64,000 nucleotides of DNA from an uncultured Alphaproteobacteria bacterium. GTDB taxonomy: Bacteria > Pseudomonadota > Alphaproteobacteria > CAAHEQ01 > UBA3637. Within the stretch, counting starts at the first letter, position 1, and every line of letters starts with the position of its first letter. The stretch is taken from the NCBI GenBank assembly GCA_944392125.1, contig CALXVP010000001.1, forward strand, positions 289,020 through 353,019. The letters are read 5' to 3'. The position numbers were made by a program, and so were the translations under genes. The notes beneath the pieces are model-generated. The model had not been told where the DNA came from, did no database searches, and worked only from the letters and a program-made list of their open reading frames with translations. Positions 1,568 through 24,442 of the stretch are shown one piece after another.

Positions 1568-1680
1568 AATGAGAAGATAATGGCAAATTAAGTAAATTTT
1601 TAGTTGATTTTAATTTATTTTTAATTTATATAATAATTTTGATGGTAAAAACTAATATTATTTTTTATAGGGAGGATATA

Positions 1681-2112
1681 ATGACAGAAAGAAATGTCGG
1701 AGTTGGTTGCGGCGTTCTCTTATTGAATGATAAAGGACAATTTTTGATGATGAAAAGGGCCTCAAAGCACGCAACGGGAACTTATGCTATTCCCGGTGGT
1801 TGGATGGAGTTTGGAGAAACCTTTGAACAGGTTGCCGAGCGGGAAGTTATGGAAGAGCTTGGTGTTGAAATTGAAAATGTAAAGGTTCTAGGTGCTACAA
1901 ATAATATCTTTCCTATGGAAAATAAACATACGGTTGCTATTATTTTAGCGGCAAAACTTAAATCGGGGACACCGCGTATAATGGAACCGGATAAATGTGA
2001 AAGCATTGCCTGGTATGATGATTGGGAACAGTTGCCGACACCACTCTTTACAGACTATAACAAGTATATTTCAAAAGAACAAATTCAAAATTATGTCAAA
2101 TCAAATCTATGA
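1681..2112 (+). CDS. NUDIX hydrolase
   Basis: Nudix box GGWMEFGETFEQVAEREVMEELGV. RBS gggagg lies upstream of ATG 1681, so I used this later start rather than the ORF-track start. Confidence 0.8.
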   Translation: MTERNVGVGCGVLLLNDKGQFLMMKRASKHATGTYAIPGGWMEFGETFEQVAEREVMEELGVEIENVKVLGATNNIFPMENKHTVAIILAAKLKSGTPRIMEPDKCESIAWYDDWEQLPTPLFTDYNKYISKEQIQNYVKSNL

Positions 2113-3397
2113 TGTAATTGTTATCGGAGCAGGTCCGGCAGGTCTGTTTTCTTCTAGAATCCTAGATAAAAAAGGATTAAAGGTTTTATTATTAGAACAG
2201 GGTTCTAATGTTGCACATAGAGTTTGCGTAAAAAAGGAAAAATGTCAAAATTGCTATACGTGTGCGGAAACTTCTGGAATTGGAGGAGTTGGTGGTTATT
2301 CAGATGGAAAGTTATGTTTAGGTCCAGTTGGAATAGATGACGAGTTATTAGGAGATTCGTATTTATCAGAGTCGGCAGAAATTGAACATATTTTTGCAGA
2401 AAATTTGGGTGATAGAATTATATACCCTCAGTCTAAAAATTTTTTTATGCAGAAGAATAATTTTACTGAGGAGTCAACGCGGGTTATAAAATTAGGAAGT
2501 AATAATGTCAGATTTGCATTCCAGAAAATATTTGATGAATTGACTGTAGAAAAGTCAATACTAACAAGAGTTAATAGTATTCATAAAGCTAGTGATTTAT
2601 TCTTGGTTAAGACGCAAAATAAAGTTTTTTCAACAAAATATGTTGTTTTAGCAACAGGTAAATCTGATCTGCTTTTAAAAAATACCATTCTGCAAGAATT
2701 TTGTATTAATTCTGAGATTGGTTATCCATGTGTAGGCGTGAGAATAGAGGTCCCTCGAATTCAAGCTAAATTACTAGAGGAAACAGCAGAAAATTTAAAA
2801 ATAAAAATGAAGTTCTCAAAAGGATATGTAAAAACACATTGTTTTTGCTCCGCTGGTGAAGTTATTTCTTATAAAAGCAATGGTAATTTGCTAATAGGTG
2901 GTCGTTCTAATTCTGATCAAAGTTCTTCTTTTACAAATGTGGCTATTCTATATAAGTGTATAGATAATGACTTGAAACATGAGGCTTTATTATCTTTAAG
3001 GGCAATTTCAAAATTGTATCCTCATAATACTTTTTTTGAAAGTATTGCTTCTTTTGTTGGCAAAAAACAAGAAAGACTAAAAGTTATCCCTTTATCAAGC
3101 TCAATTCCCTATGAGATAGGTAAGTTATTTCCCGATGAAATTTCCAGTGCACTTAAGACATTTATTTTAAACTTGGAGAAAGAAAAATATATTGATTTAA
3201 CAGGTGGTATTGTTCATGCGCCTTGTTCGGAGTGGACAACACCCAAAATAATAACTTCTTTTGTGGGCGAAACAACACATAATTTATTTTATGTTGGTGA
3301 TGGTTCAGGAAGAACTCAGGGTATTGTTGCAGCAGCAATTATGGGACAACGAGCGGCTCGAGCTATATTAGAACGGGAGCAGAAAAATGGCAGATAA
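2093..3397 (+). CDS. FAD-dependent oxidoreductase (COG2509-like, with CxxC cluster)
   Basis: Dinucleotide-binding motif DVIVIGAGPAGL immediately after internal Met (MSNQIYD). CQNCYTC motif present. Overlaps the NUDIX stop by 20 nt. Confidence 0.65.
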   Translation: MSNQIYDVIVIGAGPAGLFSSRILDKKGLKVLLLEQGSNVAHRVCVKKEKCQNCYTCAETSGIGGVGGYSDGKLCLGPVGIDDELLGDSYLSESAEIEHIFAENLGDRIIYPQSKNFFMQKNNFTEESTRVIKLGSNNVRFAFQKIFDELTVEKSILTRVNSIHKASDLFLVKTQNKVFSTKYVVLATGKSDLLLKNTILQEFCINSEIGYPCVGVRIEVPRIQAKLLEETAENLKIKMKFSKGYVKTHCFCSAGEVISYKSNGNLLIGGRSNSDQSSSFTNVAILYKCIDNDLKHEALLSLRAISKLYPHNTFFESIASFVGKKQERLKVIPLSSSIPYEIGKLFPDEISSALKTFILNLEKEKYIDLTGGIVHAPCSEWTTPKIITSFVGETTHNLFYVGDGSGRTQGIVAAAIMGQRAARAILEREQKNGR

Positions 3398-3986
3398 ACT
3401 GAAAAGAGAAGATTATTTAAAAAATCCCTTTTTTATTGCAAGGCATATTTTACTAGGAGCGTATCTTTGCACAAATATAGATGGGAAACTCACAAGAGGG
3501 AAAATTACTGAGGTGGAGTTATATATTGGTGGGAAAGATAAAGCCTCTCATAGTTATGAGTATAAAAGGACAGCACGAACAGAAATTCAATACCACATTG
3601 GTGGGCATGCCTATATTTTTAAAATTTATGGTATGTATGATCAATTTTGCGTGGTAACTAATGATATAAATATTCCGAATGTAGTATTAATTCGTTCTTT
3701 AGAACCTATAGAAGGAATTGATGTTATGAGGGAAAGAAGAAAAACAAATAATATAAGAAACCTAACAACTGGCCCGGGAAAACTGTGTCAGGCATTGGGG
3801 ATTAAAACAGATGAACACTATGGTATTGATTTATTAGGAGATTTAATTTGGATATCTCCAAAATTGGAAGAAATTAAAATTTCAGACATTATCGCAACAC
3901 CGCGAATAGGGATTGATTACGCACAGGAGTACGTGAAAAAACGCTGGCGTTTTATATTAAAAGACAATAAATATCTTAGTCGTTAA
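3387..3986 (+). CDS. DNA-3-methyladenine glycosylase (Mpg/AAG family)
   Basis: Mpg family signatures: EVELYIGGKDKASH, YIFKIYGMY, LIRSLEPIEG, GPGKLCQALGI. Start overlaps the upstream gene by 11 nt. Confidence 0.8.
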   Translation: MADKLKREDYLKNPFFIARHILLGAYLCTNIDGKLTRGKITEVELYIGGKDKASHSYEYKRTARTEIQYHIGGHAYIFKIYGMYDQFCVVTNDINIPNVVLIRSLEPIEGIDVMRERRKTNNIRNLTTGPGKLCQALGIKTDEHYGIDLLGDLIWISPKLEEIKISDIIATPRIGIDYAQEYVKKRWRFILKDNKYLSR

Positions 3987-4560
3987 CTCGATCGAATCCT
4001 TTAAATTTATTTAAATATTGACATGATATTTTCGATGCCTGTATAAACGAAAGTGTTTTTCTCAAGACTTCATCTTTACTCTCATTGTTAAATTCGATAC
4101 ATGGAGATTTGAAGAGTGAGAGATTAAACTCCTCAAGTAATAAGTTGTCTCGATGTAATCTTGATGCTATTTTCTGAATTTGATCACCGCGATTGACCAT
4201 TCTTCGTTTGAGAGCACCTTGTGATGGATTTAAATAAATAATTCGGAGCAGTTGATCGGCAAAAATCCTCTCGACCTCTTTAGCAAAAGATAAATCAATA
4301 GCTACAATTCCATTTGGCTTACAAAGTTCTTTTTCCTCAATCCCATAGTAATCTGTTCCATTATTAAAACTTATTCTATATTTACGTTTTTGAAACTCGT
4401 CATGAGAAACAAAATAATAATCTTTTGAATCAATTTCCCCCATTCTTTTAAGACGAGTTGTTGTACAAATAATGTTTGAGAAACTTGAATTTGAAGATAA
4501 CAATCCCTCTTTCAAAGTTGTTTTTCCGCTCCCACCGGCACCAAACAAAATTATTAACAT
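3976..4560 (-). CDS. P-loop NMP kinase, guanylate-kinase-like
   Basis: Walker A GAGGSGKTT and a TTR motif (CTTTRLKRMGEIDSKDYYFV) typical of the GMP kinase fold. Convergent with Mpg. Confidence 0.55.
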   Translation of the reverse strand: MLIILFGAGGSGKTTLKEGLLSSNSSFSNIICTTTRLKRMGEIDSKDYYFVSHDEFQKRKYRISFNNGTDYYGIEEKELCKPNGIVAIDLSFAKEVERIFADQLLRIIYLNPSQGALKRRMVNRGDQIQKIASRLHRDNLLLEEFNLSLFKSPCIEFNNESKDEVLRKTLSFIQASKISCQYLNKFKGFDRVND

Positions 4561-4725
4561 GTTTTCCTCCTTTATATATATTATATGATTTTAAATTAAG
4601 ATTCAATATTTTTGATAAAAATAAGTTAGGGAAGCATCCAATAAAACCCATGATTTATATAGTTTTTACTTGCTAAAATACATACCTTTTGTTACATTAT
4701 ATAGGATTATGAAAGGCTTCCAAAA

Positions 4726-7380
4726 ATGAATAAGCAACTTTCTCCCCGTTTTCCCACACCTTTTGCCGCCTTTGCCGAACAACGGCGGCTAGACTGCTAT
4801 ATTGAGGATGAAGGGCTTGTTGCTGCATATGCGTCATCGGATATTCAAATTTTACCCTATCAAATCGCAGCGGCCCGTTTTGCTTTGCGATCTGCAAACA
4901 TAAAAGGCTGTATTTTATGTGATGAAGGCAGTCTTGGTAAAACTTATGAGGCTTTGTTGGTTGTATCGCAACGTTGGTATGAAGGTAAAGAACGGATTTT
5001 AATCGTTTTGCCCCAAAACCTTAAAAGTCAATGGCAAGAAAAATTAACCAAAGAATTTACTCTACCGATAACCGATTGGAGCGAATATACACAAGAGACC
5101 AAAGGCCTGTGCCTGATGACGTATGATGAAGTCATTAAAAATGAAGAAAAAGTCAGTCAAATCATTTGGGATTTAGCTGTTTTTGACGAGGCAGACTTTC
5201 TGTTCAAACCGGGTAATAAGTCAGTTGCCATGATTAAAAAGGCAGTTGGAAATGCGTTTAAACTGCTGTTAACACCAACGCCCATTACATTAAGCATTAT
5301 GGATATTTACGGACTTATCCATTTTATTGATGAAACTTTATTGCCCGATGCAGACAGTTTTTATAAAAGGTATTTTAGAAAACCCGAAAACTATCCCGAA
5401 CTTTCATCTTGGGTGTCTAAGTTTGCGTTTAGAACGCTCAAAAAACAGGTTGAGCCTTATGTTAATTTCACCAAACGCTTGCCGGTTGTTCTCAATTACA
5501 CGCCACAAGACAAGGAGAAAAAGCTCTATGATTTAACCGAAAAATACTTGGCTCTTGATAACAAAACTGCCTATCCGCAAATGGATAATTATCAGTTAGC
5601 ATTACAATTTTATAGAACTCTTTCTTCCTCTCCGCAGGCTTTTGCGAATATGTTGTCGGCTCCGATTGAACGGGCTTCGTCTGATGAACGCATTATTTTA
5701 CATACAATGCAAAAAATGGCTTTGGAAATACCCCTTTCTGCTAAAATGGAAGAATTGTTAAAGGCTCTTAAAACAACATTTGCTCATTTAAAATCTCGCA
5801 AAGAAGTGCAAAAAGCCATTATTTTTGTTGATAACCTGACAACTTTATCCGTTTTATCAGAGTTATTAAAGGAACATTATTCGATTATAAAACACACAGA
5901 TGATAATGCTTTGAACATTTTTAGAGAAGATAAAAATATTCAAATTCTTATCACAAACGATGCAACTGCCAAAGGCTTAGACATAGAATATTGCCCCATT
6001 GTTGTGAACTATGATTTACTTTATAATGCCGTTGAGATGGAACAACGAATTTGTCGTTGCCACCGCCAAGGACAACAATCCGATGTGTTGGTTATCAATT
6101 TGCTCAGTCAGGAAAATATGTCTGATGTGCGTATTTTGGAATTGATTAACAAACGAACTTTACAATTTCAGGGTATTTTCGGGATGTCAGACGATATTGT
6201 CGGTCATTTTGATGAAACTTTGGAGGCTGTTTTACAAAAACGCCGAACCTTGCCCGATATTCAAAGGGATTTTGCACAGAACTTAGAGATAAATAAAGAT
6301 GCCAACGCTCAAGTGGTTTCTGATGCCGAAAGTGTATTGTTTACGACATTTACAAAAGATGTAGCCGAAAAAGTACAGGTTTCACCGCAGTATATTCAAG
6401 AACAGGCCGAATTCATCAATCGGGACTTGTGGGAAGTTGTAAAGTTTTATTTTGAAAAGCATCATCCTCAATATATTATTGATGACATCAATCAAACATT
6501 AACTTTACCGGATGATTGTGAACAACCGCATATGTTCTATTATTGGACTGGGACAAGAAACACACCTTATATAGGAAAACGTCAGTATGGTATGGCCAAA
6601 GATTTTAAACCAGCAAGCGGAAGAATTACCTTAACTTCTATTTTAGCCAAGGGAATTTTTAGTGAAATTGAATGTGCTACAGAGGGCGAAATAAACCTTG
6701 AAACAAATATTGAACCTTGCCAAATCAGTATGTACAATGTCGAATTACGTCGAAAGGGAAAGTTTCTTAAAAGTTATGATGTTTTAACCGGTAAGACGAG
6801 AGATGGCAGGATTTTAACCCAAGAAGAATGTGTCAAAATTTTATCACAGCCAATTAAATCTGTTGAAAATAAGGATAGAGAACGCTCTTATTGGCTAGCA
6901 AACAGTTCGTTTTCTGACAGGTTGCCAGTATTCTTAGAAGATGAGTTGAAAAACAACTATATCAAACAACAAGAAGGTGCTTTTAATACGGATATTGATA
7001 TTATTAAAATGCGTTCATCTCGTCAAAAAGCCGTACTAGAACAAACTCTTGAATCCTTACGCCAAGAAACATCAAAGATTAAGGACTGCATCGGCAGTGC
7101 CAAAGACCGCTTAGAAGAACTTAAAATTCAAAAACAAATCAACGAAAAAGAAAAACAACTCCGCAAAAAGGAAGAAGGCTTGTTTTTTGAACAAATGCGC
7201 ATCGAAGCCAACGCCGAAGAACAAATTGAAAAATTATGTGGAACGGACGGAATATCTGTCGTAGTATCACCGATATTTAAGGTGCAATTTCAAAAAACAC
7301 CCATCATGGATGAAACCCAAGACAAGTGCTTTTTTTTAAATAGAAGTATGACTACTTCACAGCTATTGCGTTTTAACTAA
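4726..7380 (+). CDS. SNF2-family helicase with coiled-coil C-terminal extension
   Basis: Motif I DEGSLGKT, motif II VFDEADFL and motif VI CHRQGQQ. A predicted coiled coil lies near residues 760-840. Confidence 0.8.
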   Translation: MNKQLSPRFPTPFAAFAEQRRLDCYIEDEGLVAAYASSDIQILPYQIAAARFALRSANIKGCILCDEGSLGKTYEALLVVSQRWYEGKERILIVLPQNLKSQWQEKLTKEFTLPITDWSEYTQETKGLCLMTYDEVIKNEEKVSQIIWDLAVFDEADFLFKPGNKSVAMIKKAVGNAFKLLLTPTPITLSIMDIYGLIHFIDETLLPDADSFYKRYFRKPENYPELSSWVSKFAFRTLKKQVEPYVNFTKRLPVVLNYTPQDKEKKLYDLTEKYLALDNKTAYPQMDNYQLALQFYRTLSSSPQAFANMLSAPIERASSDERIILHTMQKMALEIPLSAKMEELLKALKTTFAHLKSRKEVQKAIIFVDNLTTLSVLSELLKEHYSIIKHTDDNALNIFREDKNIQILITNDATAKGLDIEYCPIVVNYDLLYNAVEMEQRICRCHRQGQQSDVLVINLLSQENMSDVRILELINKRTLQFQGIFGMSDDIVGHFDETLEAVLQKRRTLPDIQRDFAQNLEINKDANAQVVSDAESVLFTTFTKDVAEKVQVSPQYIQEQAEFINRDLWEVVKFYFEKHHPQYIIDDINQTLTLPDDCEQPHMFYYWTGTRNTPYIGKRQYGMAKDFKPASGRITLTSILAKGIFSEIECATEGEINLETNIEPCQISMYNVELRRKGKFLKSYDVLTGKTRDGRILTQEECVKILSQPIKSVENKDRERSYWLANSSFSDRLPVFLEDELKNNYIKQQEGAFNTDIDIIKMRSSRQKAVLEQTLESLRQETSKIKDCIGSAKDRLEELKIQKQINEKEKQLRKKEEGLFFEQMRIEANAEEQIEKLCGTDGISVVVSPIFKVQFQKTPIMDETQDKCFFLNRSMTTSQLLRFN

Positions 7381-7495
7381 TATTTAGGATTACGGTTTAA
7401 TTATTATTGATTATCGTGGTAAGTTATGATATAGTAAAGCAACAAAATGTCGTGTACTGGAGTATTATTCTTTAAAATACAAGAAAGATAATGTT

Positions 7496-8410
7496 ATGAG
7501 AAATTTGGTTGTATTTGATTTTGGAACAAGTAAAATTAAGACCTTGTTATGCAAAGTTGATGATTTTGGGAAATTTACAAAAAAAACAGAATTCACAAAT
7601 GTTTCCATAGGAAAATTATTATCTGATAACAATAAAATTTTCAATGATGAAAAATATGCAATTCTAAATGACTTCAATGAAAAAATAAATGGTCTTATGG
7701 AAAACTTTCAGGATACCGAGCTTGAGTTTAAAGCTATCGCAACAGAGGCTTTTAGAAAAAGTCATGAACTAGAAGATGCCCTTTATAAAGCTACCAATAA
7801 GTTTAGTATAGATTTAGAGATATTAACACCGAGGAGAGAGTGTGAACTGTTGGCTGCCAATTTTAACTTAACAGAATCTGATTTACTTTTGGATATAGGT
7901 GGTGGAAGCATAAACACTATCTATAAATGTAAAGGCATGTTAAATACCCACTGTTATAGCTTAGGCGCGTATGTTTTACATAATTTATTCCAAAGTAATG
8001 GTGAGTTATTTGATAATGCCATCTATACAGCTATGGATAAATATATAAAAAAAGAAATATTTTCTTCTATTTGTCACAGAACCTTTACGAGGGTTGTTGT
8101 TGGATCAAACCAGATGCTCAGTTTCTTTAATAGTCTTTCTGAGAAAACTGGGCTCAATTTTATGCGTAACGATTCTTTTGATGCTAGCTGCATCAATACG
8201 TTAATAAATAATGTTTTTTTGGACAGAAAGTATGAAGATTTATTTCAATATTTTGAACAAAACCCAAGTTTTATGTATGGAGCAGATAAAATGTTATTGA
8301 TTTTAGAAAATTTCGTTAAATTTTTTGATATTAAAGTAATATCTCCTACAGATGATGGAATAGCGTTAGGTTTTGTAAAAACCTGTTTAAACTTGGCTCC
8401 ACTTTCATGA
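7496..8410 (+). CDS. Ppx/GppA-family (ASKHA fold) phosphatase-like protein
   Basis: Phosphate-1 motif VVFDFGTSKIK and phosphate-2 motif LLLDIGGGSINT, as in the exopolyphosphatase/GppA N-terminal domains. Confidence 0.5.
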   Translation: MRNLVVFDFGTSKIKTLLCKVDDFGKFTKKTEFTNVSIGKLLSDNNKIFNDEKYAILNDFNEKINGLMENFQDTELEFKAIATEAFRKSHELEDALYKATNKFSIDLEILTPRRECELLAANFNLTESDLLLDIGGGSINTIYKCKGMLNTHCYSLGAYVLHNLFQSNGELFDNAIYTAMDKYIKKEIFSSICHRTFTRVVVGSNQMLSFFNSLSEKTGLNFMRNDSFDASCINTLINNVFLDRKYEDLFQYFEQNPSFMYGADKMLLILENFVKFFDIKVISPTDDGIALGFVKTCLNLAPLS

Positions 8411-8417
8411 TATTACT

Positions 8418-9095
8418 ATGATTTATTTAAAATACGATTTGAACGATGAAAAAGTAAAATATCTTATTCAAAGCGATGAAAATTTGGGTAAGCTAATCAA
8501 ATATATTGGTTCTAGTGAACTAGCTATAGAGGAAGATTCTTTTAAATGTCTTGTAAAATACATTATTGGACAGCAAATCAGTGATAAAGCACGCGAAACA
8601 ATTTGGAAAAAAGTTTGCTCTAACATTGAAAATATTGCCCCTAATGACATATTAGGAATGAGTGATGAAGGGCTTTATAAAGCGGAAATTCCAAGACATA
8701 AAGTTAAATATATAAAGGCGTTAGCACATGAAATTGTAAGAAAAAGAATAGATTTTGAAATATTACAAACACTTTCAAATGAAAAGATAATTTCGCAATT
8801 AACTTTAGTAAAAGGTATTGGGAGGTGGACCGCTGAGATGTATTTGATTTTTTCATTAAAACGAGAAAATATTTTTTCAGAGAGTGATGGAACTCTTAAG
8901 CGTGTTATCCAATGGATGTATAATCTGAATGAAATACCTTCTACAGGAGTAATAAAGGAATACTTCTCTAATTGGATGGAGTACGCTACGATTGTTTCTT
9001 CATACCTATGGAAATCTATTGAATTAGGGTTAATTTGTAAACCATTTGAGCAGGTAATTTCGGGAAAACAAGGCGATGTAGATAATGTTAGATAA
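8418..9095 (+). CDS. HhH-GPD superfamily DNA glycosylase (AlkA/Ogg-like)
   Basis: Helix-hairpin-helix LVKGIGRWTAEMYLIF followed by a conserved Asp (SESDG). Confidence 0.65.
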   Translation: MIYLKYDLNDEKVKYLIQSDENLGKLIKYIGSSELAIEEDSFKCLVKYIIGQQISDKARETIWKKVCSNIENIAPNDILGMSDEGLYKAEIPRHKVKYIKALAHEIVRKRIDFEILQTLSNEKIISQLTLVKGIGRWTAEMYLIFSLKRENIFSESDGTLKRVIQWMYNLNEIPSTGVIKEYFSNWMEYATIVSSYLWKSIELGLICKPFEQVISGKQGDVDNVR

Positions 9096-10326
9096 CTTAT
9101 ACTGGATGAAATATTCCATAAATATTTCACAAAAAGCACCTTGGTCTAAACTAAAAACAGGTGTGGTACTTGTTTCCAAGCAAAATGAATTGATTTGTTC
9201 CGCTTACACTGGGGAAGAAGATAATTCATCTTGGCTGGATGTTTTGTTAAAAAAAATAAAAGGTAGTAGTCTTTTCAATGGATGGTGTCTTTATCTCACG
9301 GTTAATACATTATCGAAAACAGAGTCATTTGATCTAATTGAATTACTAAAGCTAATTCACGTTCGTAAAATATATGTAGGGCTCCCGGATTTTAGGCTGG
9401 AAAATTATCTAAACGGGGATCCTGTTCTGGTACTAGATTATGTTCATCGTTACCCTGATGATTTACAACGTGAAATATTAAAACAGAATAAGCGTTTTTA
9501 CGCAAACAGTAGACAAAGCATTCAGTATAGTTCGTACTATTCTGCTAATAGAATCAGCAGTTTTGTGTTAGAGAAACTGGAACGAAAAGGTATAACTATT
9601 TCTGAAGAAGAGCTTAATATAAATAAAAAAAGTACAGCTCTCGCATCTTTAATTTTTAATAAATATGAAATTGAGTATGAGAAGGCCGCTTGTATAGTAG
9701 ATAATATCTTATCCGAGGCCTTTAATAACAAATATAGTAAATATGATTATTTGAATGATATACGTTCATTTGATTTAGGATGGAAACAAACCTTTCAATC
9801 TATCTATAACAGGGTATCTAAGAAGCCGATGCCTGGTATGAATATACTAAATGTTGGTGTTGGTTCTGGAAATGAAGCTATTAGTTTATTTTCAAATTGT
9901 CCTCATATCACCTTTGTTGATATTGCTGGGGAGGGACTTGAACGAATTAAAATACAACTTCCATTATCTAATTTTGTTGTTTCTAAAGCGGAAAATTTAT
10001 CTTCTTTGAATGAAAATAGCTATGAATTATATATTTCTTTAAGAACCTATAATTCTTCATTTTTTGATATTAATCATGCAATATCAGAAGCATACAGGGT
10101 GTTAAAAAAGGATGCTATTATAATTATTTCCATAGCCAATGGATTTTTATGTTCTGGGGAAAAACGAATTATCCCTGGTTTAATAGTTCCAGGTACAGAT
10201 TTTGTTGATATTTATAGGGGGATAGATACAGTTAAGTTGCTACATAAAAACTTCGTTCAAATAGGATTTAAAAATATTCAAATTTTCCCAACTAAAACAG
10301 AAAGTTATTTAACAGCAGTCAAGTAA
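9085..10326 (+). CDS. Fusion protein: degenerate cytidine/dCMP-deaminase-like domain + class I SAM-dependent methyltransferase
   Basis: The N-terminus resembles the RibD/dCMP-deaminase fold but lacks HxE and PCxxC. The C-terminus has methyltransferase motif I ILNVGVGSGNEA and a post-I acidic residue (FVDIAG). Confidence 0.5.
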   Translation: MLDNLYWMKYSINISQKAPWSKLKTGVVLVSKQNELICSAYTGEEDNSSWLDVLLKKIKGSSLFNGWCLYLTVNTLSKTESFDLIELLKLIHVRKIYVGLPDFRLENYLNGDPVLVLDYVHRYPDDLQREILKQNKRFYANSRQSIQYSSYYSANRISSFVLEKLERKGITISEEELNINKKSTALASLIFNKYEIEYEKAACIVDNILSEAFNNKYSKYDYLNDIRSFDLGWKQTFQSIYNRVSKKPMPGMNILNVGVGSGNEAISLFSNCPHITFVDIAGEGLERIKIQLPLSNFVVSKAENLSSLNENSYELYISLRTYNSSFFDINHAISEAYRVLKKDAIIIISIANGFLCSGEKRIIPGLIVPGTDFVDIYRGIDTVKLLHKNFVQIGFKNIQIFPTKTESYLTAVK

Positions 10327-10345
10327 TCAAACAAAGGCGAGTATT

Positions 10346-11062
10346 ATGATGAAACAAATAACTTTTGCAGATAACGTATTGCGCTTTCATGATGAACTTT
10401 CACATCAATCACTTTCATTGCCAGAAGGGTTTAGACTGGTCAATCCATTTGTTGCCGCTCAAAAAGAGAAAGTAAAACAGGTAACAACGCTTTTTTATCA
10501 AAAATATTATAACGATAGTAATCCTAGACGCCTTATACTTGGGAGTTCTCCAGCCAGACGGGGGACAGCCGTGACCGGCGTTCCCTTTGAAGATGCGGCA
10601 CATCTTCAAAAAGAAACAGGAATTTCCATTGATAAATTTTTTATCAATCACTCTTCATCAGGATTTTTATATGAAGTTATGGATGAATATGGTGGTTGTA
10701 ATAAATTTTATGCGGACTTTTATATGAGTTTTGTTTGCCCTCTTGGGATAGTTAAAATAAACTCAAAAGGTAATGAGGTTAATTGTAATTATTATGAAAA
10801 TAAAAAATTACGAGAGGTATTATCACCATTTATTGTACGTATGCTTCATCGACAAATAACTTTAGGTATTGATACATCTGTATGTTATTGTATTGGGAGT
10901 GGTGAAAATTATAGCTTTTTGTCTACACTTAATGAAGAGCATAAGTTTTTTGATTTAATATTACCATTAGAGCATCCTCGTTTTATAATGCAATACAATT
11001 TAAAAGATAAAGAAAAATTTATGAATAAATATATGAATGCATTTTGTAAGTATAAAAGTTAA
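10346..11062 (+). CDS. Uracil-DNA glycosylase superfamily protein (family 4/SMUG-like, DUF4918-like)
   Basis: LGSSPARRGTAVTGVPFED resembles the UDG motif GEAPG..E..G.PF. Confidence 0.5.
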   Translation: MMKQITFADNVLRFHDELSHQSLSLPEGFRLVNPFVAAQKEKVKQVTTLFYQKYYNDSNPRRLILGSSPARRGTAVTGVPFEDAAHLQKETGISIDKFFINHSSSGFLYEVMDEYGGCNKFYADFYMSFVCPLGIVKINSKGNEVNCNYYENKKLREVLSPFIVRMLHRQITLGIDTSVCYCIGSGENYSFLSTLNEEHKFFDLILPLEHPRFIMQYNLKDKEKFMNKYMNAFCKYKS

Positions 11063-11095
11063 TACAATGTAAAGTTTCTATGAATGGAGGAAGAA

Positions 11096-11875
11096 ATGGA
11101 AAATAGAGACAATAAAACACTGGTACATTTTAATACAGATACCATTAAAATATATGATTTAAAAAATGGTATATTAAAAATGTTAAATGAGGAGCGTGTT
11201 TCCTTTGGAACAGGTTGTTTAAGTGAGGTTTTAGAGAAGATAAAAGAATTTTTAAATCATTTAAGCAATTATACAAACGAAATAAATAATACATCTGTCA
11301 GGTTATATGCCACGGGTTTATTCCAAAATTTTAAACAGGAGGAAAAAAATCAAATAGTTAATAACATTTTCGTGGATTATGCTCTTTATTTTAATGTAGT
11401 GCCTTTCGATTTAGAACAGTTTTATTTGCAAAATAGCAGAAATATTTGTGAATCTGAAAATATGATACAAGGATTGCTATGTCAGGAATTTAGAAATGTT
11501 GTTGTATGCGGAAGCTTTCAACAGTTTTTACAAGACATTGAAAAACTGATTAAACATTTATATAGGTATAATATTAATGTACTTAGTCCAGCCTCAACAA
11601 AAATTAAACCAGAAACAATAGGAACTGAGTTCATTCTTTTTGATTATCAAGACTGTATTAAAAATGAGCGTGATACTTGGCGGCATAAGTATGAACATAT
11701 GGAAAAATTTAGACAAGCGGATGCTATTATCGTTTGTGATCCTCGTGGAGTGGTTGGCAAGGGAACTATATTTGAGTTTGGTTTTATGACTGCTATTTCA
11801 AAAAGGATCATATTTATGGAACAGCCAAAAAATATATCCATTTTCTTTCCGTATGAGATTGGACTTAATTTTTAG
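11096..11875 (+). CDS. Protein with C-terminal nucleoside 2-deoxyribosyltransferase-like (Rossmann-like) domain
   Basis: C-terminal ADAIIVCDPRG...GKGTIFEFGFMTAISKRII matches the nucleoside 2-deoxyribosyltransferase core motif. The RBS ggagg precedes the ATG at 11096. Confidence 0.45.
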   Translation: MENRDNKTLVHFNTDTIKIYDLKNGILKMLNEERVSFGTGCLSEVLEKIKEFLNHLSNYTNEINNTSVRLYATGLFQNFKQEEKNQIVNNIFVDYALYFNVVPFDLEQFYLQNSRNICESENMIQGLLCQEFRNVVVCGSFQQFLQDIEKLIKHLYRYNINVLSPASTKIKPETIGTEFILFDYQDCIKNERDTWRHKYEHMEKFRQADAIIVCDPRGVVGKGTIFEFGFMTAISKRIIFMEQPKNISIFFPYEIGLNF

Positions 11876-11925
11876 GAAACAGATGTCGAATCTTAGCGAT
11901 ATATAAAAATTTTAAAAAGATGCTA

Positions 11926-12120
11926 TTAATTCGAACACATTTCATCATAAACGAGGTTATTTCGGTCAATTTGCCGGATAGTTTCGGGTGTATCTTGCTC
12001 GTAATCCGCATAAATAGGCTCGTAAATCAGGCAGAAATCACCGTTTATATTTGTCGTGCAACCGGCGGATGCGGTCAATATCAATAACATTATCCCGTAT
12101 CGTTTTAGCTTTTTGAACAT
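11926..12120 (-). CDS. Rz1-like outer-membrane spanin lipoprotein (copy 1)
   Basis: Signal peptide plus lipobox LTASAGC. Partly overlaps the Rz-like gene in another frame. About 90% identical to copy 2. Confidence 0.6.
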   Translation of the reverse strand: MFKKLKRYGIMLLILTASAGCTTNINGDFCLIYEPIYADYEQDTPETIRQIDRNNLVYDEMCSN

Positions 12121-12304
12121 TTTCCAAGGTTCCTTTCATTGTTTTGACTTGTTCTTTATGTTTTCCTTTTTGGTAGCCCAGCAGGTATAAAATTGCTAAA
12201 CCACCGCCGATAATCCAATATTTTGCTTTATTCCAAGCTGTCGTTATGAGTGTCCACATTGTAGTTTTCCTTTCATTTTTTTTGTGTTTAGATTTGTTTT
12301 GTTG
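11928..12304. repeat. Direct repeat copy A (~375 bp, spanin module)
   Basis: About 90-93% identity to 13927-14293 by eye. Confidence 0.8.
12038..12259 (-). CDS. Rz-like inner-membrane spanin (copy 1)
   Basis: N-terminal TM (WIIGGGLAILYLL) followed by a charged/coiled region. The internal Met matches the start of copy 2. Confidence 0.5.
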   Translation of the reverse strand: MWTLITTAWNKAKYWIIGGGLAILYLLGYQKGKHKEQVKTMKGTLENVQKAKTIRDNVIDIDRIRRLHDKYKR

Positions 12305-12445
12305 CAAATATCTAAAAAACGACAGCTTCCGCAAGGAATTTCCAGAATTCTACCTTTAAAACCATTCAAAAGATTGTTAAAAATAAGGTCTGTATCAGAA
12401 GTATCTGAAAATTCCAAATCATAAAAGACACTTCTGTCCTTATAA

Positions 12446-13566
12446 TCATTTAATTTCATTCCAGTGTTCCATATGGCGTTGAACTTCAAAGTGGACTATC
12501 TTTCCGTTTTCAACAATTTTACCTGCTTCTGCTACATCATAAGGTTTTTGAGTATAAATACCCTCTGCCATTTGATATAGATAGTATGAGAGATGCTTTG
12601 ACATTGCCTGTACCGTTGTTACAGAATAAGCTGATGGCAGTACATCAATTTTACAATGTAATACACCATATTTTGAAAAAACAGGATTTTCAAGTGTTGT
12701 ATTGTGATCAAATGTTTCTATATATCCAGAACCATAACCACAGGTTACATCCATTATAATGGCGCCTTTTTTCATTTTTTTCACCATTTCTTTTGTTACA
12801 ATGGGTTTTGTATCATAAGTGGATATTAAAATAGCCCCAATCAACACATCTGCATCTAACAATTCTTGGCGTAATTTGTTAGGCGTATTTAGAAAACACT
12901 TAGTATTTGTTGGCATTGATGCCTGAAATGCTCTTAATTTTTCCCTGTTTTGGCCAAAAACAACTACATTTGCCCCCCATGGAAGCAGCCATTCTTGCAG
13001 CGGCACCACCCGCATTCCCATACCCGATGACAACAACCTTTGGTGGCTTTACATTCACCATAGGAGCTAATAAAACACCGGAGCCCCCTCTATTATTCTG
13101 TAGATGGTAAGCGGCAAAAATAACAGCTACTTTTCCTGCAATTTCACTACTTGCAACAGAAGCGGGAAAAATACCTTCTTTTGTTTTAAAAAATTCATAT
13201 GTATAAGCCGTACATTTACTTTTTAACAATTTATCCGTTAATTCTTTGTTGCCTTCTGCATGAAAAACAGCTCCAATATGTTTATCTGCATTAATAATTA
13301 ATATATTTGAACTCTGAATCAACTGGTGGCTTATATTTAAATATCACATTACTTTGAGTCCAAGCCTGTTTCGTGGAAACAATTTTAGCCCCAACATTTG
13401 CATATTCTTTATCAGGTATACCAATTCCTGAACCTGTGCCTCTTTCAACATATACATCATATCCGTTTTGAATGAATATGCGTAAATCTTCTGGCAAAAG
13501 TATTGTACGTCGCTCTCCTACCTTCTTTTCTTTAATGATAGAAATTGTTTTTTTATTCTTTTTCAT
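12446..13566 (-). pseudogene. Alanine dehydrogenase/PNT-family gene disrupted by two frameshifts
   Basis: Three consecutive overlapping minus-strand ORFs together cover an Ald-like protein. The N-terminal domain is ILLPEDLRIFIQNGYDVYVERGTGSGIG. The NAD-binding segment is VVVIGYGNAGGAAARMAA. The C-terminal segment is GAIIMDVTCGYGSGYIETFDHN. Confidence 0.6.
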
Positions 13567-13568
13567 TT

Positions 13569-13841
13569 TTAGTCCGATATGTCAAATTGAATCACTTGGA
13601 AGCCATACTTGCCAATTTCTTCTTGAGACCAGTAAGTACAATCCTTTGTTTTCATAACATAGGAAACATTGACATTCACTTTACGCCCAGTTTCTTGCTT
13701 TGTAACATCATCTATTTCAACTAAAACGAGTGTATCACCTTGATTGATTTTAAAATCAGCCAAACGTAATTCTGTTTTCTTTTCTCCTGAAAGTACTTTT
13801 TTGAAATATTCTGATAATATTTTCTTTTGAACTTGCGCCAT
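13569..13841 (-). CDS. DUF3850/ASCH-like small protein
   Basis: Pattern ILSEYFKKVLSGEKKTELRLADFKINQGDTLVLVE. Confidence 0.45.
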   Translation of the reverse strand: MAQVQKKILSEYFKKVLSGEKKTELRLADFKINQGDTLVLVEIDDVTKQETGRKVNVNVSYVMKTKDCTYWSQEEIGKYGFQVIQFDISD

Positions 13842-13911
13842 GGTTATCCCCCATACTTTTTGATATTTTCAATATAATATAAAAAATATATAAAAGCAAG
13901 AAAATTTTTTA

Positions 13912-14109
13912 CTACGTTTCTATACAAATTTCATCATAAACAAGGTTATTTCGGTCAATTTGCCGGATGGTTTCCGGTGTATCTTGTTCGTAATCCGCAT
14001 AAATCGGCTCGTAAATCAGGCAAAAATCACCGTTTATATTTGTTGTGCAACCGGCGGATGCGGTCAATATCGATAACATGATCCCGAATAATTTTAGCTT
14101 TTTGAACAT
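13912..14109 (-). CDS. Rz1-like outer-membrane spanin lipoprotein (copy 2)
   Basis: Near-identical paralog of 11926-12120 with the same lipobox. Confidence 0.6.
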   Translation of the reverse strand: MFKKLKLFGIMLSILTASAGCTTNINGDFCLIYEPIYADYEQDTPETIRQIDRNNLVYDEICIET

Positions 14110-14293
14110 TTTCCAAGGTTCCTTTCATCGTTTTTACTTGTTCTTTATGTTTTCCTTTTTGGTAGCCGAGCAGATATAAAATTGCCAAACCACCGCCGAT
14201 AATCCAATATTTTGCTTTATTCCAAGCCGTTGTTATAAGTGTTAACATTATAGTTTCCCTTTCATTTTTCTTGTGTTTAGATTTGTTTTGTTG
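13927..14293. repeat. Direct repeat copy B (spanin module)
   Basis: Matches 11928-12304. Confidence 0.8.
14027..14248 (-). CDS. Rz-like inner-membrane spanin (copy 2)
   Basis: Paralog of 12038-12259. Confidence 0.5.
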   Translation of the reverse strand: MLTLITTAWNKAKYWIIGGGLAILYLLGYQKGKHKEQVKTMKGTLENVQKAKIIRDHVIDIDRIRRLHNKYKR

Positions 14294-14614
14294 AATCGGG
14301 CAAATAAACCGGTATTGCTAAATTTTCTCACTAACCCCGTTCGAAAATAAAGCAATTACCTCGTTTATTTTCCTTTCTTTAACCCAATATCTCTTACTCC
14401 GCTTACGCCAAGCACAATATCTAGTCCCATCAGCAGATATTCCCAATCCACGTTTGGAACACTAAAAAACGGGACAACCACGCAGTTGTGGAATATCCCG
14501 TAGCAGAGTATCCACCCCCACCCAAGCCACCTTCATTCCTCACATTATCAAATTTGGTGCGATAAAAAATCATTGAGTAATAGGAAAATGGTCACAGATG
14601 TATAGTGACATACA

Positions 14615-16030
14615 TCAAGACCATTTGACGAAAATAATCAGTGATTTTTTACGCATCCGTAGGACAAGGCGTATTTTGCCGATTTTAAGTTGAATTTTGT
14701 TTAATTGTATATCTGCCAAAACCCAAGCAACAGAACGGGTTGCCACCGGCGATGACCATCCTCCACTTGGCGACCATGTCGGCAGTTTTCTTGTGACGAT
14801 ACAGTTGACCATACGAGACGAACGCTGTGATAGGTTATCGGTGGCTCGCATCGTAATGGCAAGCAATGTCACGTTCCCATAGTCTTTATCTGACACGATA
14901 TAGCCCTTGGCCGAACCCCACCGGATTTCATGGCCGGCACGTGAAGATGTGTCTTTGGCATCTAACCGAGTAGCTCTGACCTCATACCTGCCGGTTGTAA
15001 CCGAATAAGTATAGGTTTTATACATGGCATTGTGGTTATTGCTTGTAATACTTTCCGTTCCAAGCGTAACCCAATCACCCAGCGCATTATCTTCATCATC
15101 AATCCGCCTGGCATCGATACGCCATTGAATGGTTTTATTGGCCATGGTGCCATTGTTGTTTGCATAATAAAGGCCTCTTTGAAAAGCTACATCAATCTCT
15201 ATTTTATCGATTACACTTTCTGTCGGATTTAATACAAAAGGTCCGCATACCTCATCTTTTAGCAGTTCTTGCCCGGCAACTTCAGGCGAAGTCACAACAT
15301 CATCACGAAAGAGCGTGTTTTGCTCGCCCGGATTGATTATTTTGTATGTAATCTCTTCAAATGAATCAATCGGAGTATCTTCAATTCTTATTTGTTCGAT
15401 GTTATATTCACCTTGACCAATGCAATGGAGCTGATAAACATACTGTTCATCATTCGCATATGCATAATATGGCTGACTGGCAAAATCCGGATAAATCAGG
15501 TGCCGCCCGTAAATGACCGGTATCGGACTACCGAGCCTTGCTTGGTTTCCTTGCGCTTGCAAAGAGTATGTCGGACTTTGTGCCGCTATGGAGTTGGCCG
15601 AGCCTGAACCATTAAGCGATGCCCTTGGGGTGGGAACAAATGTATTAACCAAAAAGCTCCCGGCCATAGAGACACCGGCCGCCGCAACGCCGCCCCATAC
15701 AGCACCATAAGCTGCTCCTACAGCACCGCCAGTATAAACAGAAGCAACCACAACGGCCACCATCAAAACAACTTGAATAGGGTTTGATGACTTTTTACCG
15801 CCACCGCCTTGTGGTAAAGTGATGAAGCAGACCAAGGATTTCGGCTGAACGGTATCGTTCCAAAACTTCCTGAGGACTGCGGCACCGTCTATCATGCATA
15901 TTGTCGGGCGCGAAAGGTCCACTTTCTGTTCCCGGACCATGTCCCAAACGGTTTTGCCGTCATCAAGGACATTGTCTATCCGACCCTTATTCGGCTGAAA
16001 AGGGTTTGTAATGTGTGAAAAGTAAATCAT
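14615..16030 (-). CDS. Phage tail assembly protein I fused to N-terminal ~280 aa of host-specificity protein J (truncated)
   Basis: The N-terminal ~190 aa resemble lambda gpI, including the Gly-rich hydrophobic stretch and a PIPVIYG-like motif. The remainder resembles the lambda gpJ N-terminus. The ORF ends about 800 aa earlier than a J protein. Confidence 0.55.
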   Translation of the reverse strand: MIYFSHITNPFQPNKGRIDNVLDDGKTVWDMVREQKVDLSRPTICMIDGAAVLRKFWNDTVQPKSLVCFITLPQGGGGKKSSNPIQVVLMVAVVVASVYTGGAVGAAYGAVWGGVAAAGVSMAGSFLVNTFVPTPRASLNGSGSANSIAAQSPTYSLQAQGNQARLGSPIPVIYGRHLIYPDFASQPYYAYANDEQYVYQLHCIGQGEYNIEQIRIEDTPIDSFEEITYKIINPGEQNTLFRDDVVTSPEVAGQELLKDEVCGPFVLNPTESVIDKIEIDVAFQRGLYYANNNGTMANKTIQWRIDARRIDDEDNALGDWVTLGTESITSNNHNAMYKTYTYSVTTGRYEVRATRLDAKDTSSRAGHEIRWGSAKGYIVSDKDYGNVTLLAITMRATDNLSQRSSRMVNCIVTRKLPTWSPSGGWSSPVATRSVAWVLADIQLNKIQLKIGKIRLVLRMRKKSLIIFVKWS

Positions 16031-16435
16031 TTATTTTCCTTTTACTCGATAATAGCTGTCTATTTGCCACCCGCACAAGCGCATTGATGGTAAGTCTTGA
16101 AAGATAACACCGGCATCGCGGCAACAATGTAAAACACCACCGCCGTCTGCATCCAACCATAAGCCGGCATGAACCGGATGTTTTGACTGACGAAGCAGAA
16201 CGACATCACCGTCTTGCGGTTTTTCAACTTCATTAAATGCCTGGAAAGCAGAATCCTCTTTGAATGCAGTTAAAACGCTCCGAAGATTATCCGGATTAAC
16301 GTTTACTGCCGGCACATCTATGCCATATTCATGCTTCAGGATCCAGCGCACCATTCCCCAACAATCAAACTCGTCAGGGCCTTGCGCACCGGCAACCCAG
16401 GGCAAGCCTATATATTTACAAGCAAAATGTGTCAT
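16031..16435 (-). CDS. Phage tail protein K-like NlpC/P60 peptidase
   Basis: Cys/His catalytic motifs FDCWGMVRW and HAGLW. Sits immediately upstream of the I/J gene with a 4-nt overlap to the next gene. Confidence 0.65.
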   Translation of the reverse strand: MTHFACKYIGLPWVAGAQGPDEFDCWGMVRWILKHEYGIDVPAVNVNPDNLRSVLTAFKEDSAFQAFNEVEKPQDGDVVLLRQSKHPVHAGLWLDADGGGVLHCCRDAGVIFQDLPSMRLCGWQIDSYYRVKGK

Positions 16436-16974
16436 CGTGTTAATCCCGGATAGTTTTTAACGGTATAGTTTTCACTCGGAAACGACTTGTTGCCGATGTC
16501 CATCATGCGGGCCGTAGCCGTTATTTTATAGCAGTCCACATGAATATCAGTAATAACCAAGGTTATCGGCGGGTCCATCTGCGGCGTTGTCAGGTCGTCA
16601 GACAGATATGGCCGGTATGTCAGCTCGATCATGTCCTGTGTCTCTATTGCCCGGTCAAGATAAGCGATCATCTCGGTTGAAACGTTGTCGATCGTGACCG
16701 AAATCTCAGGTGTCGGCGTGTTGTTGACCGGTGGCAATTCCAAGTCAAAGGCCATGGCAACAAACTCCACAGCTTCACCCGGATTTAGAGGGGCCGAGTT
16801 TTCAAGCGTACAAGTGTGGCTGACGTGATCCCGAACCACGCGAATGGCAGTCTGATTTCCTTGTTCATCCACAAAAGACGGGTGTCGAAGCTCTAAGGTG
16901 TGCAATAAAATCACATCACCCGGAGCCGAAGCATAGGCTTCTTTTAAGGCTTCTGATAAAGTGTTATCTGTCAT
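16432..16974 (-). CDS. Phage minor tail protein (lambda L position)
   Basis: Called from synteny only (upstream of K-like gene, translationally coupled). No motif recognised. Confidence 0.4.
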   Translation of the reverse strand: MTDNTLSEALKEAYASAPGDVILLHTLELRHPSFVDEQGNQTAIRVVRDHVSHTCTLENSAPLNPGEAVEFVAMAFDLELPPVNNTPTPEISVTIDNVSTEMIAYLDRAIETQDMIELTYRPYLSDDLTTPQMDPPITLVITDIHVDCYKITATARMMDIGNKSFPSENYTVKNYPGLTR

Positions 16975-17379
16975 TTCATTTTTCCTTAAATATCCTCAAC
17001 AAGTTCACAGATTTTTGAATGATAAACTTTATTTCCCCGCATCACGACAATTGTATCTCCAACAATAACCATACTTTGCCGATACCATGTTGTTGAGGTA
17101 AATGGCATTTTATATTTTTTGTAAGTGGAAAAATCAGAAGTCGAATAGATTCTTGATTGGTCTATAATATAATACAGTCCGTTATAATAAAGGACATTAA
17201 AAGAATAGTGCTCGGCATTAAAACCTTCCGGTTTTGTTAACTCACTCCAATTTGTTCCGTCTGAACTTCTGATAAACTTATCACTCCAGTTGTAATGGTA
17301 AAAATAACCGTTACAATAAACGATGGATATCCGAATATGACCGCTAATATTCCTTGGTCCTTAAATCCTTGTACTGTCA

Positions 17380-18765: not shown

Positions 18766-18887
18766 GGTTTTCTCCTAATGTTAAACCTAATTCGGCAAGT
18801 TTGGCAGTTTGCCTATCGCACGTTTTGTTATCAGCATTTGACCGGTAATCCGGCGAAAGGAACCAGAAAAACTAATTTTCCTCGCTA

Positions 18888-20297: not shown

Positions 20298-20562
20298 AAG
20301 GCATTATTCTCCTAAATATAATCAAATTTGGTGTTAGCAAAAAATGTTTTTGATTAGGCGTTTGATTGCAAATGATTTGATTAATCATTAAAAACAAACA
20401 ACGACATCAGAAATATTTTTTGCAACATCGTAGACAATGCTTATTTTGCCGATTTTCTTCAAAATTTTTTTTGTTAATATATTCCATATTATCTGCATAA
20501 AATTCCTTGAAACTCATCAAAATAAGCTATTGCCAAATTGATGATATTCAGGAAAATAATGC

Positions 20563-20802
20563 CTAAAATACCACCTTTATCATACGTCTGCGAGAGGTTG
20601 TCGTTTTACCTTCGGCCGCCGCAATTTGAGATTTTAGACTTGAGATATAACTTTCCAAAGCCGCTCGTGAGGTTTGGTTGTAGGTCACCGAACCGAAATT
20701 GCCGACATTAACCGAGACTTCCTTGGCTCCGATGAGCAGTTTATGGTAGGCTTCTTCTGCCTCAGCCAATCGTGTTTTAAGTATTTCTTTATCTATAACC
20801 AT
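20563..20802 (-). CDS. Head-tail joining protein (gpW-like)
   Basis: About 79 aa, sits between the terminase remnant and the portal gene, as lambda W does. Confidence 0.5.
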   Translation of the reverse strand: MVIDKEILKTRLAEAEEAYHKLLIGAKEVSVNVGNFGSVTYNQTSRAALESYISSLKSQIAAAEGKTTTSRRRMIKVVF

Positions 20803-21256: not shown

Positions 21257-21335
21257 TTTAAGCTCCTTTTGTTCTTGTTTTTCAAGGCGTTCTCTGCCTT
21301 TCCTTACAATTACATTGTTGCTTGGAATTCGAAAT

Positions 21336-23891: not shown

Positions 23892-23966
23892 AGCTTTTTA
23901 TCCTTTCATGTTTGGTTGCTACATGAGGTAAAAATCCACGAGAGGTCGAAAAAGTACCAAACAATA

Positions 23967-24398: not shown

Positions 24399-24403
24399 TT
24401 AGA

Positions 24404-24433: not shown

Positions 24434-24442
24434 GTAAATAAT

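Follow-up and report, generated by a model that had tools for sequence, protein, structure and literature searches.

What does a protein do that carries the fold of a nucleotide deaminase without its zinc site, joined to a methyltransferase and encoded between two DNA glycosylases? The question is raised by an open reading frame (ORF) at positions 9085..10326 of the + strand in a 64,000-nucleotide stretch of DNA from an uncultured alphaproteobacterium, hereafter the window. The 413-residue product, referred to below as the fusion protein, comprises a RibD/dCMP-deaminase-type domain that lacks the zinc site (the pseudo-deaminase; residues 1 to 124, 9085..9456), a helical linker (residues 125 to 245, 9457..9819) and a class I S-adenosylmethionine (SAM) methyltransferase core of the UbiE/Coq5 type (residues 246 to 413, 9820..10323), all on the + strand. 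Its gene is the hallmark of a cassette that spreads horizontally, with the order (NUDIX)-(AlkA-like glycosylase)-fusion protein-SMUG2-type glycosylase-NDT-like N-glycosidase, where NDT stands for nucleoside 2-deoxyribosyltransferase. The structural assignment is solid, and the conservation and mobility of the cassette are striking.

Domain architecture and family of the fusion protein

The full-length protein was modelled with AlphaFold2 (AF2) from a 53-sequence alignment, with a predicted local distance difference test score (pLDDT) of 89.5 and a predicted template modelling score (pTM) of 0.83. The limits of the linker follow the secondary structure of this model and the reach of the two domain alignments, the one with RibD extending to about residue 145 and the one with Coq5 beginning at about residue 207. 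The last ~40 residues of the linker hold the N-terminal motif of UbiE/Coq5 proteins (YDY..D.RS...W). The ATG start codon overlaps the stop codon of the upstream gene by 11 nt and is preceded, ~12 nt upstream, by an AAGG sequence.

Full-length homologues number 556; they are ~415 aa long, nearly all between 407 and 430 aa, and align end to end. Their hosts are Streptomyces, gut Firmicutes and intracellular Alphaproteobacteria. The most specific public name among them is 'methyltransferase domain-containing protein', and none carries a precomputed Pfam domain on its N-terminal half. When the N-terminal 170 aa were used as query against 1.84 billion representatives, only the family itself was recovered (54 clusters), and this single-sequence search returned no active deaminase bridging to it. 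A profile search with the N-terminal alignment retrieved nothing but short or truncated family members.

Among the short forms, the only verified internal deletion is P0178. In this lineage, represented by 11 contigs (L097 8001-9008; also L098 and L099), residues ~244 to 333, which form the SAM-binding core, are deleted and a frameshift is present. The C-terminal remnant is 65% identical and stop-free, and the genes for the NUDIX, HhH-GPD, uracil-DNA glycosylase (UDG)-like and NDT-like proteins are intact. The 248-aa forms P0176 and P0179 were set aside as probable artefacts of a contig end and of a contig full of short ORFs.

The N-terminal domain is a deaminase fold without a zinc site

A preliminary description made from the DNA letters had placed the N-terminal ~120 aa in the CDA/dCMP-deaminase topology, with the zinc ligands replaced and the domain catalytically dead, ahead of a class I SAM methyltransferase. 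The motifs on which it relied, SWLD, NTLSKTES and ILNVGVGSG, all lie where it had put them (residues 49-52, 74-81 and 253-261). The check it had called for, structure prediction followed by comparison with known structures, bore out the deaminase fold, and sequence alignment bore out the loss of the zinc site. The topology needs one amendment: the closest structures are the deaminase domains of RibD, whose P-D-P motif is kept, rather than CDA or dCMP deaminase.

From the sequence by itself the deaminase signal is weak. The Pfam profile dCMP_cyt_deam_1 (PF00383) matches residues 5 to 48 only, with an E-value of 0.015 and a score of 15.6 bits, below the cut-off of 25. The model of residues 1 to 170 (pLDDT 89.7) is predicted to adopt the three-layer α/β/α deaminase fold. 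Its best structural matches are RibD deaminase domains (scores of 15.2 and 13.0, with 145 of the 170 residues aligned), followed by T4 dCMP deaminase (12.5), fungal Rib2 (12.3), TadA and ADAT2 (about 12) and the inactive ADAT3 (11.4). FdhD, PurH, TM1506, CDA and APOBEC score lower than ADAT3.

The ligand positions were mapped by aligning the N-terminal family profile to Acinetobacter baumannii RibD (PDB 3zpc), an alignment with an E-value of only 0.3. S49 takes the place of the His ligand, W50 that of an Ala and L51 that of the catalytic Glu, and the (H/C)-x-E motif is thereby replaced by S49-W50-L51. N74-T75-L76 corresponds to E-P-C and L84 to the second Cys, leaving T75-L76 ... L84 where P-C-x(n)-C would stand. 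G99-L-P-D-P103 matches A-C-P-D-P, with P101-D102-P103 equivalent to the PDP of RibD. The comparison with the RibD clade gives a mixed picture: P-D-P is conserved and the Cys-Cys spacer measures 7 residues versus 8 in 3zpc, but the family lacks the His that RibD conserves in its insert.

The loss holds across 205 distinct family sequences. His never occurs at position 49, which holds S, T, D, L, N or P and, in one sequence, Cys; Y, C, S or L predominates at position 51; and positions 76 and 84 are occupied by aliphatic or aromatic residues, without a single Cys. C38 is the only conserved Cys or His in the whole domain. Judged from these sequences, a zinc site is impossible. Since the zinc ligands and the catalytic Glu are gone family-wide, the domain is dead as a deaminase.

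The domain is not decaying: at 49%, mean pairwise identity is as high as in the linker, and a set of residues is kept near-invariant. G99 and D112 are invariant, and W50, T72, N74, T75, P101, D102 (203 of 205), Y108 and R122 nearly so, a pattern that indicates purifying selection. W50 and N74-T75 lie at or beside the former catalytic motif positions, and D102 lies within the P-D-P shared with RibD. We infer that W50, N74, T75, D102 and D112 line a retained pocket for a base or nucleotide. This clustering of conserved residues at the active-site motif positions of RibD suggests a pseudo-enzyme domain that binds a pyrimidine- or purine-like, possibly ribosylated, ligand.

The C-terminal domain is a UbiE/Coq5-type methyltransferase

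The assignment of the C-terminus to the class I SAM methyltransferases, with intact cofactor motifs, stands. The domain exceeds the Pfam gathering scores of Methyltransf_11 (39.6 vs 21.2), Methyltransf_25 and Ubie_methyltran. In a profile search with residues 205 to 413, the top match is yeast Coq5 (1.4e-6), followed by thiol methyltransferases of the GtmA/TmtA type. The Coq5 alignment takes in the UbiE/Coq5-specific N-terminal motif YD..ND..S...W. SAM-binding motif I and the acidic D279 after strand 2 are invariant, as is the loop S-L-R-T-Y-N-S-S-F-F after strand 4. The scores for UbiE/MenG remain below the NCBIfam equivalog cut-offs (39.5 bits vs 351, and 38 vs 158).

The fusion protein contains neither the DNA-methyltransferase motif IV, (D/N/S)PP(Y/F/W), nor a PCQ motif with a catalytic Cys, nor a target-recognition domain. 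Structural neighbours of the methyltransferase domain are small-molecule methyltransferases and not DNA methyltransferases. The family is acidic, with a median isoelectric point (pI) of 5.7, which weakly favours a small ligand over a polynucleotide. The domain is probably an active methyltransferase of the small-molecule kind.

Partner proteins of the cassette

The gene directly upstream (8418..9095, + strand) encodes an AlkA/Mag-like HhH-GPD DNA glycosylase (Pfam HhH-GPD 2e-14; PDB 2h56 1.3e-29). It also matches Mag1 and Deinococcus radiodurans AlkA, and its catalytic Asp is conserved.

Downstream lies a SMUG2-type (DUF4918) glycosylase of the UDG superfamily (10346..11062, + strand; Pfam UDG 2.6e-13; PDB 5h0j 1.8e-63). 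It is ~50% identical to 5h0j, which we take to be the SMUG2 of Pedobacter, with an identical HPRF motif. Listeria homologues that are 66 to 69% identical bear the NCBI name 'SMUG2 DNA glycosylase family protein', and one Streptomyces record labels the protein DUF4918. Motif 1 reads G-S-S-P-A-R-R-G instead of G-I-N-P-G-R-F-G and is invariant in the clade. We considered whether GSSPA marks a glycosylase repurposed for the cassette and rejected this, as stand-alone Listeria genes share the motif and UDG families 4 to 6, which lack a polar motif-1 residue, are still active. One such Listeria gene is found on the Listeria booriae chromosome (L103 6001-6711), where it lies beside a SPOUT methyltransferase gene. 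We assume on these grounds that the SMUG2-type partner is an active glycosylase.

The third partner (11084..11875, + strand) consists of ~135 N-terminal residues that match nothing and an NDT-like domain (Pfam Nuc_deoxyrib_tr 1.5e-4; 8e-6 for a Streptomyces orthologue). Its motif KGT.FE.GFM aligns with the catalytic Glu of PTD (PDB 1s2d), and the corresponding E231 is invariant. A kinship between its N-terminus and the neighbouring Ppx/GppA-like protein was considered and discarded, the similarity not being significant. The partners look catalytically competent, since each conserves its key element: the Asp in the HhH-GPD protein, the HPR motif in the UDG-like protein and the Glu in the NDT-like domain.

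Distribution and mobility of the cassette

We surveyed synteny at 86 loci from GTDB genomes and metagenomes. The SMUG2-type gene adjoins the fusion gene downstream in all but one of them (85/86) and the NDT-like gene is present in 81, an arrangement that spans Actinobacteria, Firmicutes and Alphaproteobacteria. The HhH-GPD gene lies directly upstream in 33 of the 86 loci, all low-GC, and is itself preceded by a NUDIX gene in at least 15; NUDIX recurs in three lineages. The low-GC loci share no conserved genes beyond the cassette, and no enrichment in defence genes was found among 137 distinct flanking proteins from them.

The cassette is carried on conjugative elements (MobL, TraG, primase) and elsewhere adjoins serine recombinases. 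In human-gut Firmicutes (L092 to L094, about 6836-14163) it resides in a ~7-kb integrative element inserted within the peroxiredoxin gene ahpC. This element consists of a helix-turn-helix protein, a small ORF, the four-gene cassette, another small ORF and a large serine recombinase. Because the cassette is its sole cargo, a self-sufficient selectable trait is implied.

The HhH-GPD gene is absent from Streptomyces and relatives (41 high-GC loci and six large plasmids). There the fusion, DUF4918/UDG and NDT-like genes belong to a block of ~10 genes that continues with an AMP-ligase bearing an N-terminal acyl carrier protein (ACP), a ketosynthase (KS), a KS-like protein, an ACP-thioesterase (TE), a small reverse-strand gene, an APH-type kinase and one to three NUDIX genes. 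The gap between the three-gene core and the KS operon measures 96 to 184 bp. The block occurs in 26 to 34 of the 41 high-GC loci and on four plasmids (L088, L089, L090 and L091, at about 14000-25000 of each locus), whose upstream flanks vary and include a conservon and a type I-E CRISPR-Cas locus.

Fusion of the protein to its neighbour is also found: P0146 (655 aa; L102 102-2069) joins it to a SMUG2-like glycosylase that is 50% identical to the window copy, and an NDT-like gene follows. No relatives were detected in a phage genome collection or in IMG/VR, and a phage DNA-hypermodification pathway was set aside on that ground.

In a Caedibacter metagenome-assembled genome (L009 104-1597), the fusion gene stands alone among insertion sequence elements, beside a LOG/SLOG-like gene and an N6/N4 DNA methylase. 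The cassette seems broken up there.

Genomic context in the window

The first ~14,000 bases of the window have a G+C content of 30 to 36%, compared with 40 to 50% over most of the remainder. The cassette genes lie here in a same-strand run with tiny gaps, apparently one operon, in the order SNF2 helicase, Ppx/GppA-like protein, AlkA-like HhH-GPD glycosylase, fusion protein, UDG-superfamily glycosylase and NDT-like protein. No terminator-like site was found on the + strand between 7380 and 11974.

The SNF2 helicase (4726..7380, + strand; Pfam SNF2-rel_dom and Helicase_C) has an N-terminal half that matches the PADLOC profile of DrmD from DISARM at 9e-81, yet it falls far under the NCBIfam equivalog cut-off, and the gene is not kept with the cassette elsewhere in the survey. 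The Ppx/GppA-like (ASKHA) protein (7496..8410, + strand; Pfam Ppx-GppA 8e-9) accompanies the fusion gene in the species of the window, also sampled at locus L007 (99% identity), and in one further, proteobacterial locus, L024. The C-terminus of a type III restriction enzyme is encoded upstream of the operon. PADLOC (PADLOC-DB 2.0) recognised no system: the HhH-GPD, UDG-like, NDT-like and Ppx-like proteins gave no matches, and the fusion protein gave a weak generic match alone, to the MADS N6-methyltransferase mad2.

A 3.2-kb insertion (1569..4842) carries genes for a NUDIX protein, a flavin adenine dinucleotide (FAD)-dependent oxidoreductase, an MPG/AAG 3-methyladenine glycosylase and, on the minus strand, a guanylate-kinase-like protein, as judged by Pfam and NCBIfam matches. 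It is missing from L007, which is elsewhere 94 to 97% identical. The insertion has a related nucleotide and base-repair theme and is a second module beside the cassette, not a conserved part of it.

On the minus strand downstream, ORFs of 64 aa (lipoprotein-like) and 98 aa (membrane-like) at 11926-12334 resemble lysis or spanin genes. A prophage remnant occupies 14615-23600 (minus strand), with a tip attachment J-like protein, NlpC/P60, DUF1833, an S49 protease, a lambda-type portal and a ParB-fused N6/N4 DNA methylase. With these directly downstream, the cassette abuts the end of a prophage. Two overlapping minus-strand ORFs at 12446-13322, both alanine dehydrogenase/PNT, probably represent a frameshifted pseudogene, and the segment 12305-13923 is missing from L007.

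Proposed function and alternatives

The preliminary description had suggested a cytosine or deoxycytidylate-like substrate, a choice that no evidence here supports, and a base-modification role. As modification of DNA this role is doubtful, given the UbiE/Coq5 small-molecule type of the methyltransferase, the lack of motif IV and the median pI of 5.7; moreover, the genes conserved beside it encode enzymes of N-glycosidic bond cleavage (two DNA glycosylases and an NDT-like enzyme) and NUDIX proteins, not restriction or DNA-modification functions. We propose instead, with a probability of about 40%, that the cassette is a mobile excise-and-dispose module in which the pseudo-deaminase binds a base or nucleotide and so offers a non-canonical base to the methyltransferase. 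The two glycosylases would excise such a base, whether deaminated, alkylated or an analogue, from DNA. The same base would be cleared from the nucleotide pool, where the NUDIX enzyme would turn the (deoxy)nucleoside triphosphate into the monophosphate and the NDT-like enzyme would turn the monophosphate or nucleoside into the free base. The pocket of the pseudo-deaminase would capture the released base or its nucleotide, and the attached methyltransferase would methylate it, blocking salvage and re-incorporation. One class of non-canonical base would be handled in this 'excise and cap' scheme at the levels of both DNA and the nucleotide pool. Resistance to a genotoxin or base analogue, nitrosative or alkylation damage, or phage DNA with odd bases might provide the trigger.

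A deaminase pocket binds the amino substrate and the deaminated product alike, and for this reason a dead copy of a deaminase would make a natural reader for deaminated bases. Uracil, xanthine and hypoxanthine are known substrates of glycosylases of the SMUG2, AlkA and MPG types. Given the affinity to RibD, ring-opened purines of the formamidopyrimidine (Fapy) kind or aminouracil-type ligands are conceivable. A broader version, which we consider possible but doubtful, sees the cassette of three to five genes as a self-contained mobile base-excision system in which the fusion protein is the specificity element and either neutralises a foreign or toxic base by methylation or marks self versus non-self for the glycosylases. 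Candidates for such a base would be one modified by a phage, an antibiotic that is a base analogue and a product of the neighbouring Streptomyces KS operon.

Several observations weigh against the excise-and-dispose module. The P0178 lineage has lost the methyltransferase core yet retains the N-terminal domain and the remaining cassette genes, which shows that methylation is not indispensable, at least in the short term. Listeria has SMUG2-like genes of near-identical type as stand-alone housekeeping genes without the rest of the cassette; since these share motif 1, the glycosylase partner is not specialised for the cassette. The P0146 fusion is known from one 3-kb contig alone. The disposal model leaves unexplained why, in Streptomyces, the AMP-ligase/ACP-KS-KS-ACP/TE operon invariably comes after the three-gene core. 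Finally, the pocket residues were placed by alignment and not by coordinates.

Could the methyl group go onto nucleic acid after all? In the manner of TadA and ADAT3, the dead deaminase would flip a base out of RNA or of single-stranded DNA, such as incoming conjugative DNA, for the methyltransferase, and the mark would shield self or flag foreign DNA to the glycosylases, as in a restriction-modification system. The domain matches TadA and ADAT2/3 strongly in structure, and ADAT3 offers a precedent for nucleic-acid binding by a dead deaminase subunit. DNA glycosylases accompany the gene, and one of them is physically fused to the protein in P0146; the window neighbours include the type III restriction gene, the DrmD-like SNF2 helicase and the prophage remnant; and being the sole cargo of a small integrative element is typical of selfish restriction-modification modules. 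However, the same small-molecule type of methyltransferase, without (D/N/S)PP(Y/F), PCQ or a target-recognition domain, the acidic charge of the family, and NUDIX and NDT-like partners that work on nucleotides and not on DNA all speak against such a mark. So do low-GC neighbourhoods without defence enrichment, the failure of PADLOC to recognise a system, and the survival of the core-deleted lineage with its glycosylases intact. We regard nucleic-acid methylation as unlikely.

Somewhat less likely still is a biosynthetic role. The fusion protein would then methylate an intermediate on the way to a secondary metabolite or signal, either derived from a nucleobase or similar to a ribosylaminopyrimidine. 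Supply or trimming of the base would fall to the NDT-like and UDG-like proteins, and in Streptomyces an acyl or polyketide part would come from the AMP-ligase, KS, ACP and TE. A methyltransferase of the small-molecule type fits such a role, and the ~10-gene block is conserved on four plasmids with differing upstream flanks and in most of the high-GC loci. Outside the Actinobacteria, however, cassettes of four or five genes travel on integrative or conjugative elements without genes resembling polyketide synthases. Two of the partners have close homologues among genuine DNA repair glycosylases, and the 96 to 184 bp that separate the core from the KS operon may mean that these are two units.

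The dead domain might also bind no ligand and serve only in dimerisation or scaffolding, holding the methyltransferase in a complex with the glycosylases, an idea compatible with the other readings. Deaminase-fold proteins are obligate oligomers, and RibD, dCMP deaminase and TadA all oligomerise through the deaminase domain. The N-terminal domain survives deletion of the methyltransferase core, and its fusion to a glycosylase suggests complex formation. Yet the best-conserved residues (W50, N74-T75, D102 and D112) map to former catalytic-motif positions rather than being spread over the surface, and the P-D-P motif of RibD is kept, so that a purely structural role seems about as improbable as the biosynthetic one. 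An abortive-infection system in which the NDT-like protein is a toxic effector depleting NAD+ or nucleotides, as in retron Ec86, with the fusion protein and glycosylases as sensors or regulators, is the least probable alternative: such NAD+-depleting effectors are known from defence systems (review) and the window context is defence-like, but no retron, reverse transcriptase or other known sensor is found here, the NDT-like, UDG-like and HhH proteins have no PADLOC matches, and the neighbourhoods are not defence-enriched.

Comparison with known systems

Hundreds of family members are publicly named only 'methyltransferase', and their N-terminal half belongs to no Pfam family. Recognition of a zinc-less RibD-type fold gives a testable handle, namely the predicted pocket of W50, N74, T75, D102 and D112. 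Should the cassette provide resistance to a genotoxin or base analogue, or restriction of unusual-base DNA, it would be a new class of mobile trait and a further case of a pseudo-enzyme domain acting as substrate reader. A self-contained base-excision system would represent a new use of the dead deaminase fold, as a base reader joined to a methyltransferase of non-DNA type. Even if the cassette is merely an ordinary repair add-on, the annotation of the gene can still be corrected. In the literature searched on this gene combination, on DUF4918 and on SMUG2, we found no account of the cassette, of the N-terminal half or of a dead deaminase-methyltransferase fusion.

Human NUDT15 and TPMT treat thiopurines by a logic like the one that we propose, with a NUDIX enzyme for clearing the aberrant nucleotide and a SAM methyltransferase for capping the free base; the parallel is an analogy only, with no homology past the general folds. 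The cassette also shares with Brig1 (Brig1 paper), which provides glycosylase-based defence, and with AlkZ, AlkD and YtkR2, which confer self-resistance to genotoxins, the presence of a DNA glycosylase for unusual bases in an accessory or mobile region. Those systems are single genes of other families, without a methyltransferase, pseudo-deaminase or NDT-like enzyme, whereas the cassette is known from its genes alone.

Inactive deaminase-fold domains have precedents: the available part of the 2011 deaminase classification includes ADAT3/Tad3 and the plant RibD-like PyrR, and its clade descriptions, in that part, do not mention the present family. In ADAT3 the zinc ligands are still present and the partner on tRNA is an active deaminase, whereas the fusion protein has lost all ligands and carries a methyltransferase in cis. 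Among class I methyltransferases, the UbiE/Coq5/GtmA type is shared, and the fusion protein adds the pseudo-deaminase domain and a unique invariant SLRTYNSSFF loop. UbiE and Coq5 act in quinone biosynthesis, a context that is missing here, and the scores lie far below the UbiE/MenG equivalog cut-offs. The nearest fold is that of RibD (RibG), whose deaminase domain acts on a ribosylaminopyrimidine phosphate; the fusion protein lacks the His-x-Glu and Cys ligands, and hence zinc and catalysis. The C-terminal partner of RibD is a reductase resembling dihydrofolate reductase, in contrast to the SAM methyltransferase found here with glycosylase neighbours and no riboflavin operon. The fusion protein is thus a member of the deaminase-like fold that is closest to RibD and retains none of the catalytic features of zinc deaminases, and at the same time a class I methyltransferase of the UbiE/Coq5 type that is neither a UbiE orthologue nor a DNA methyltransferase.

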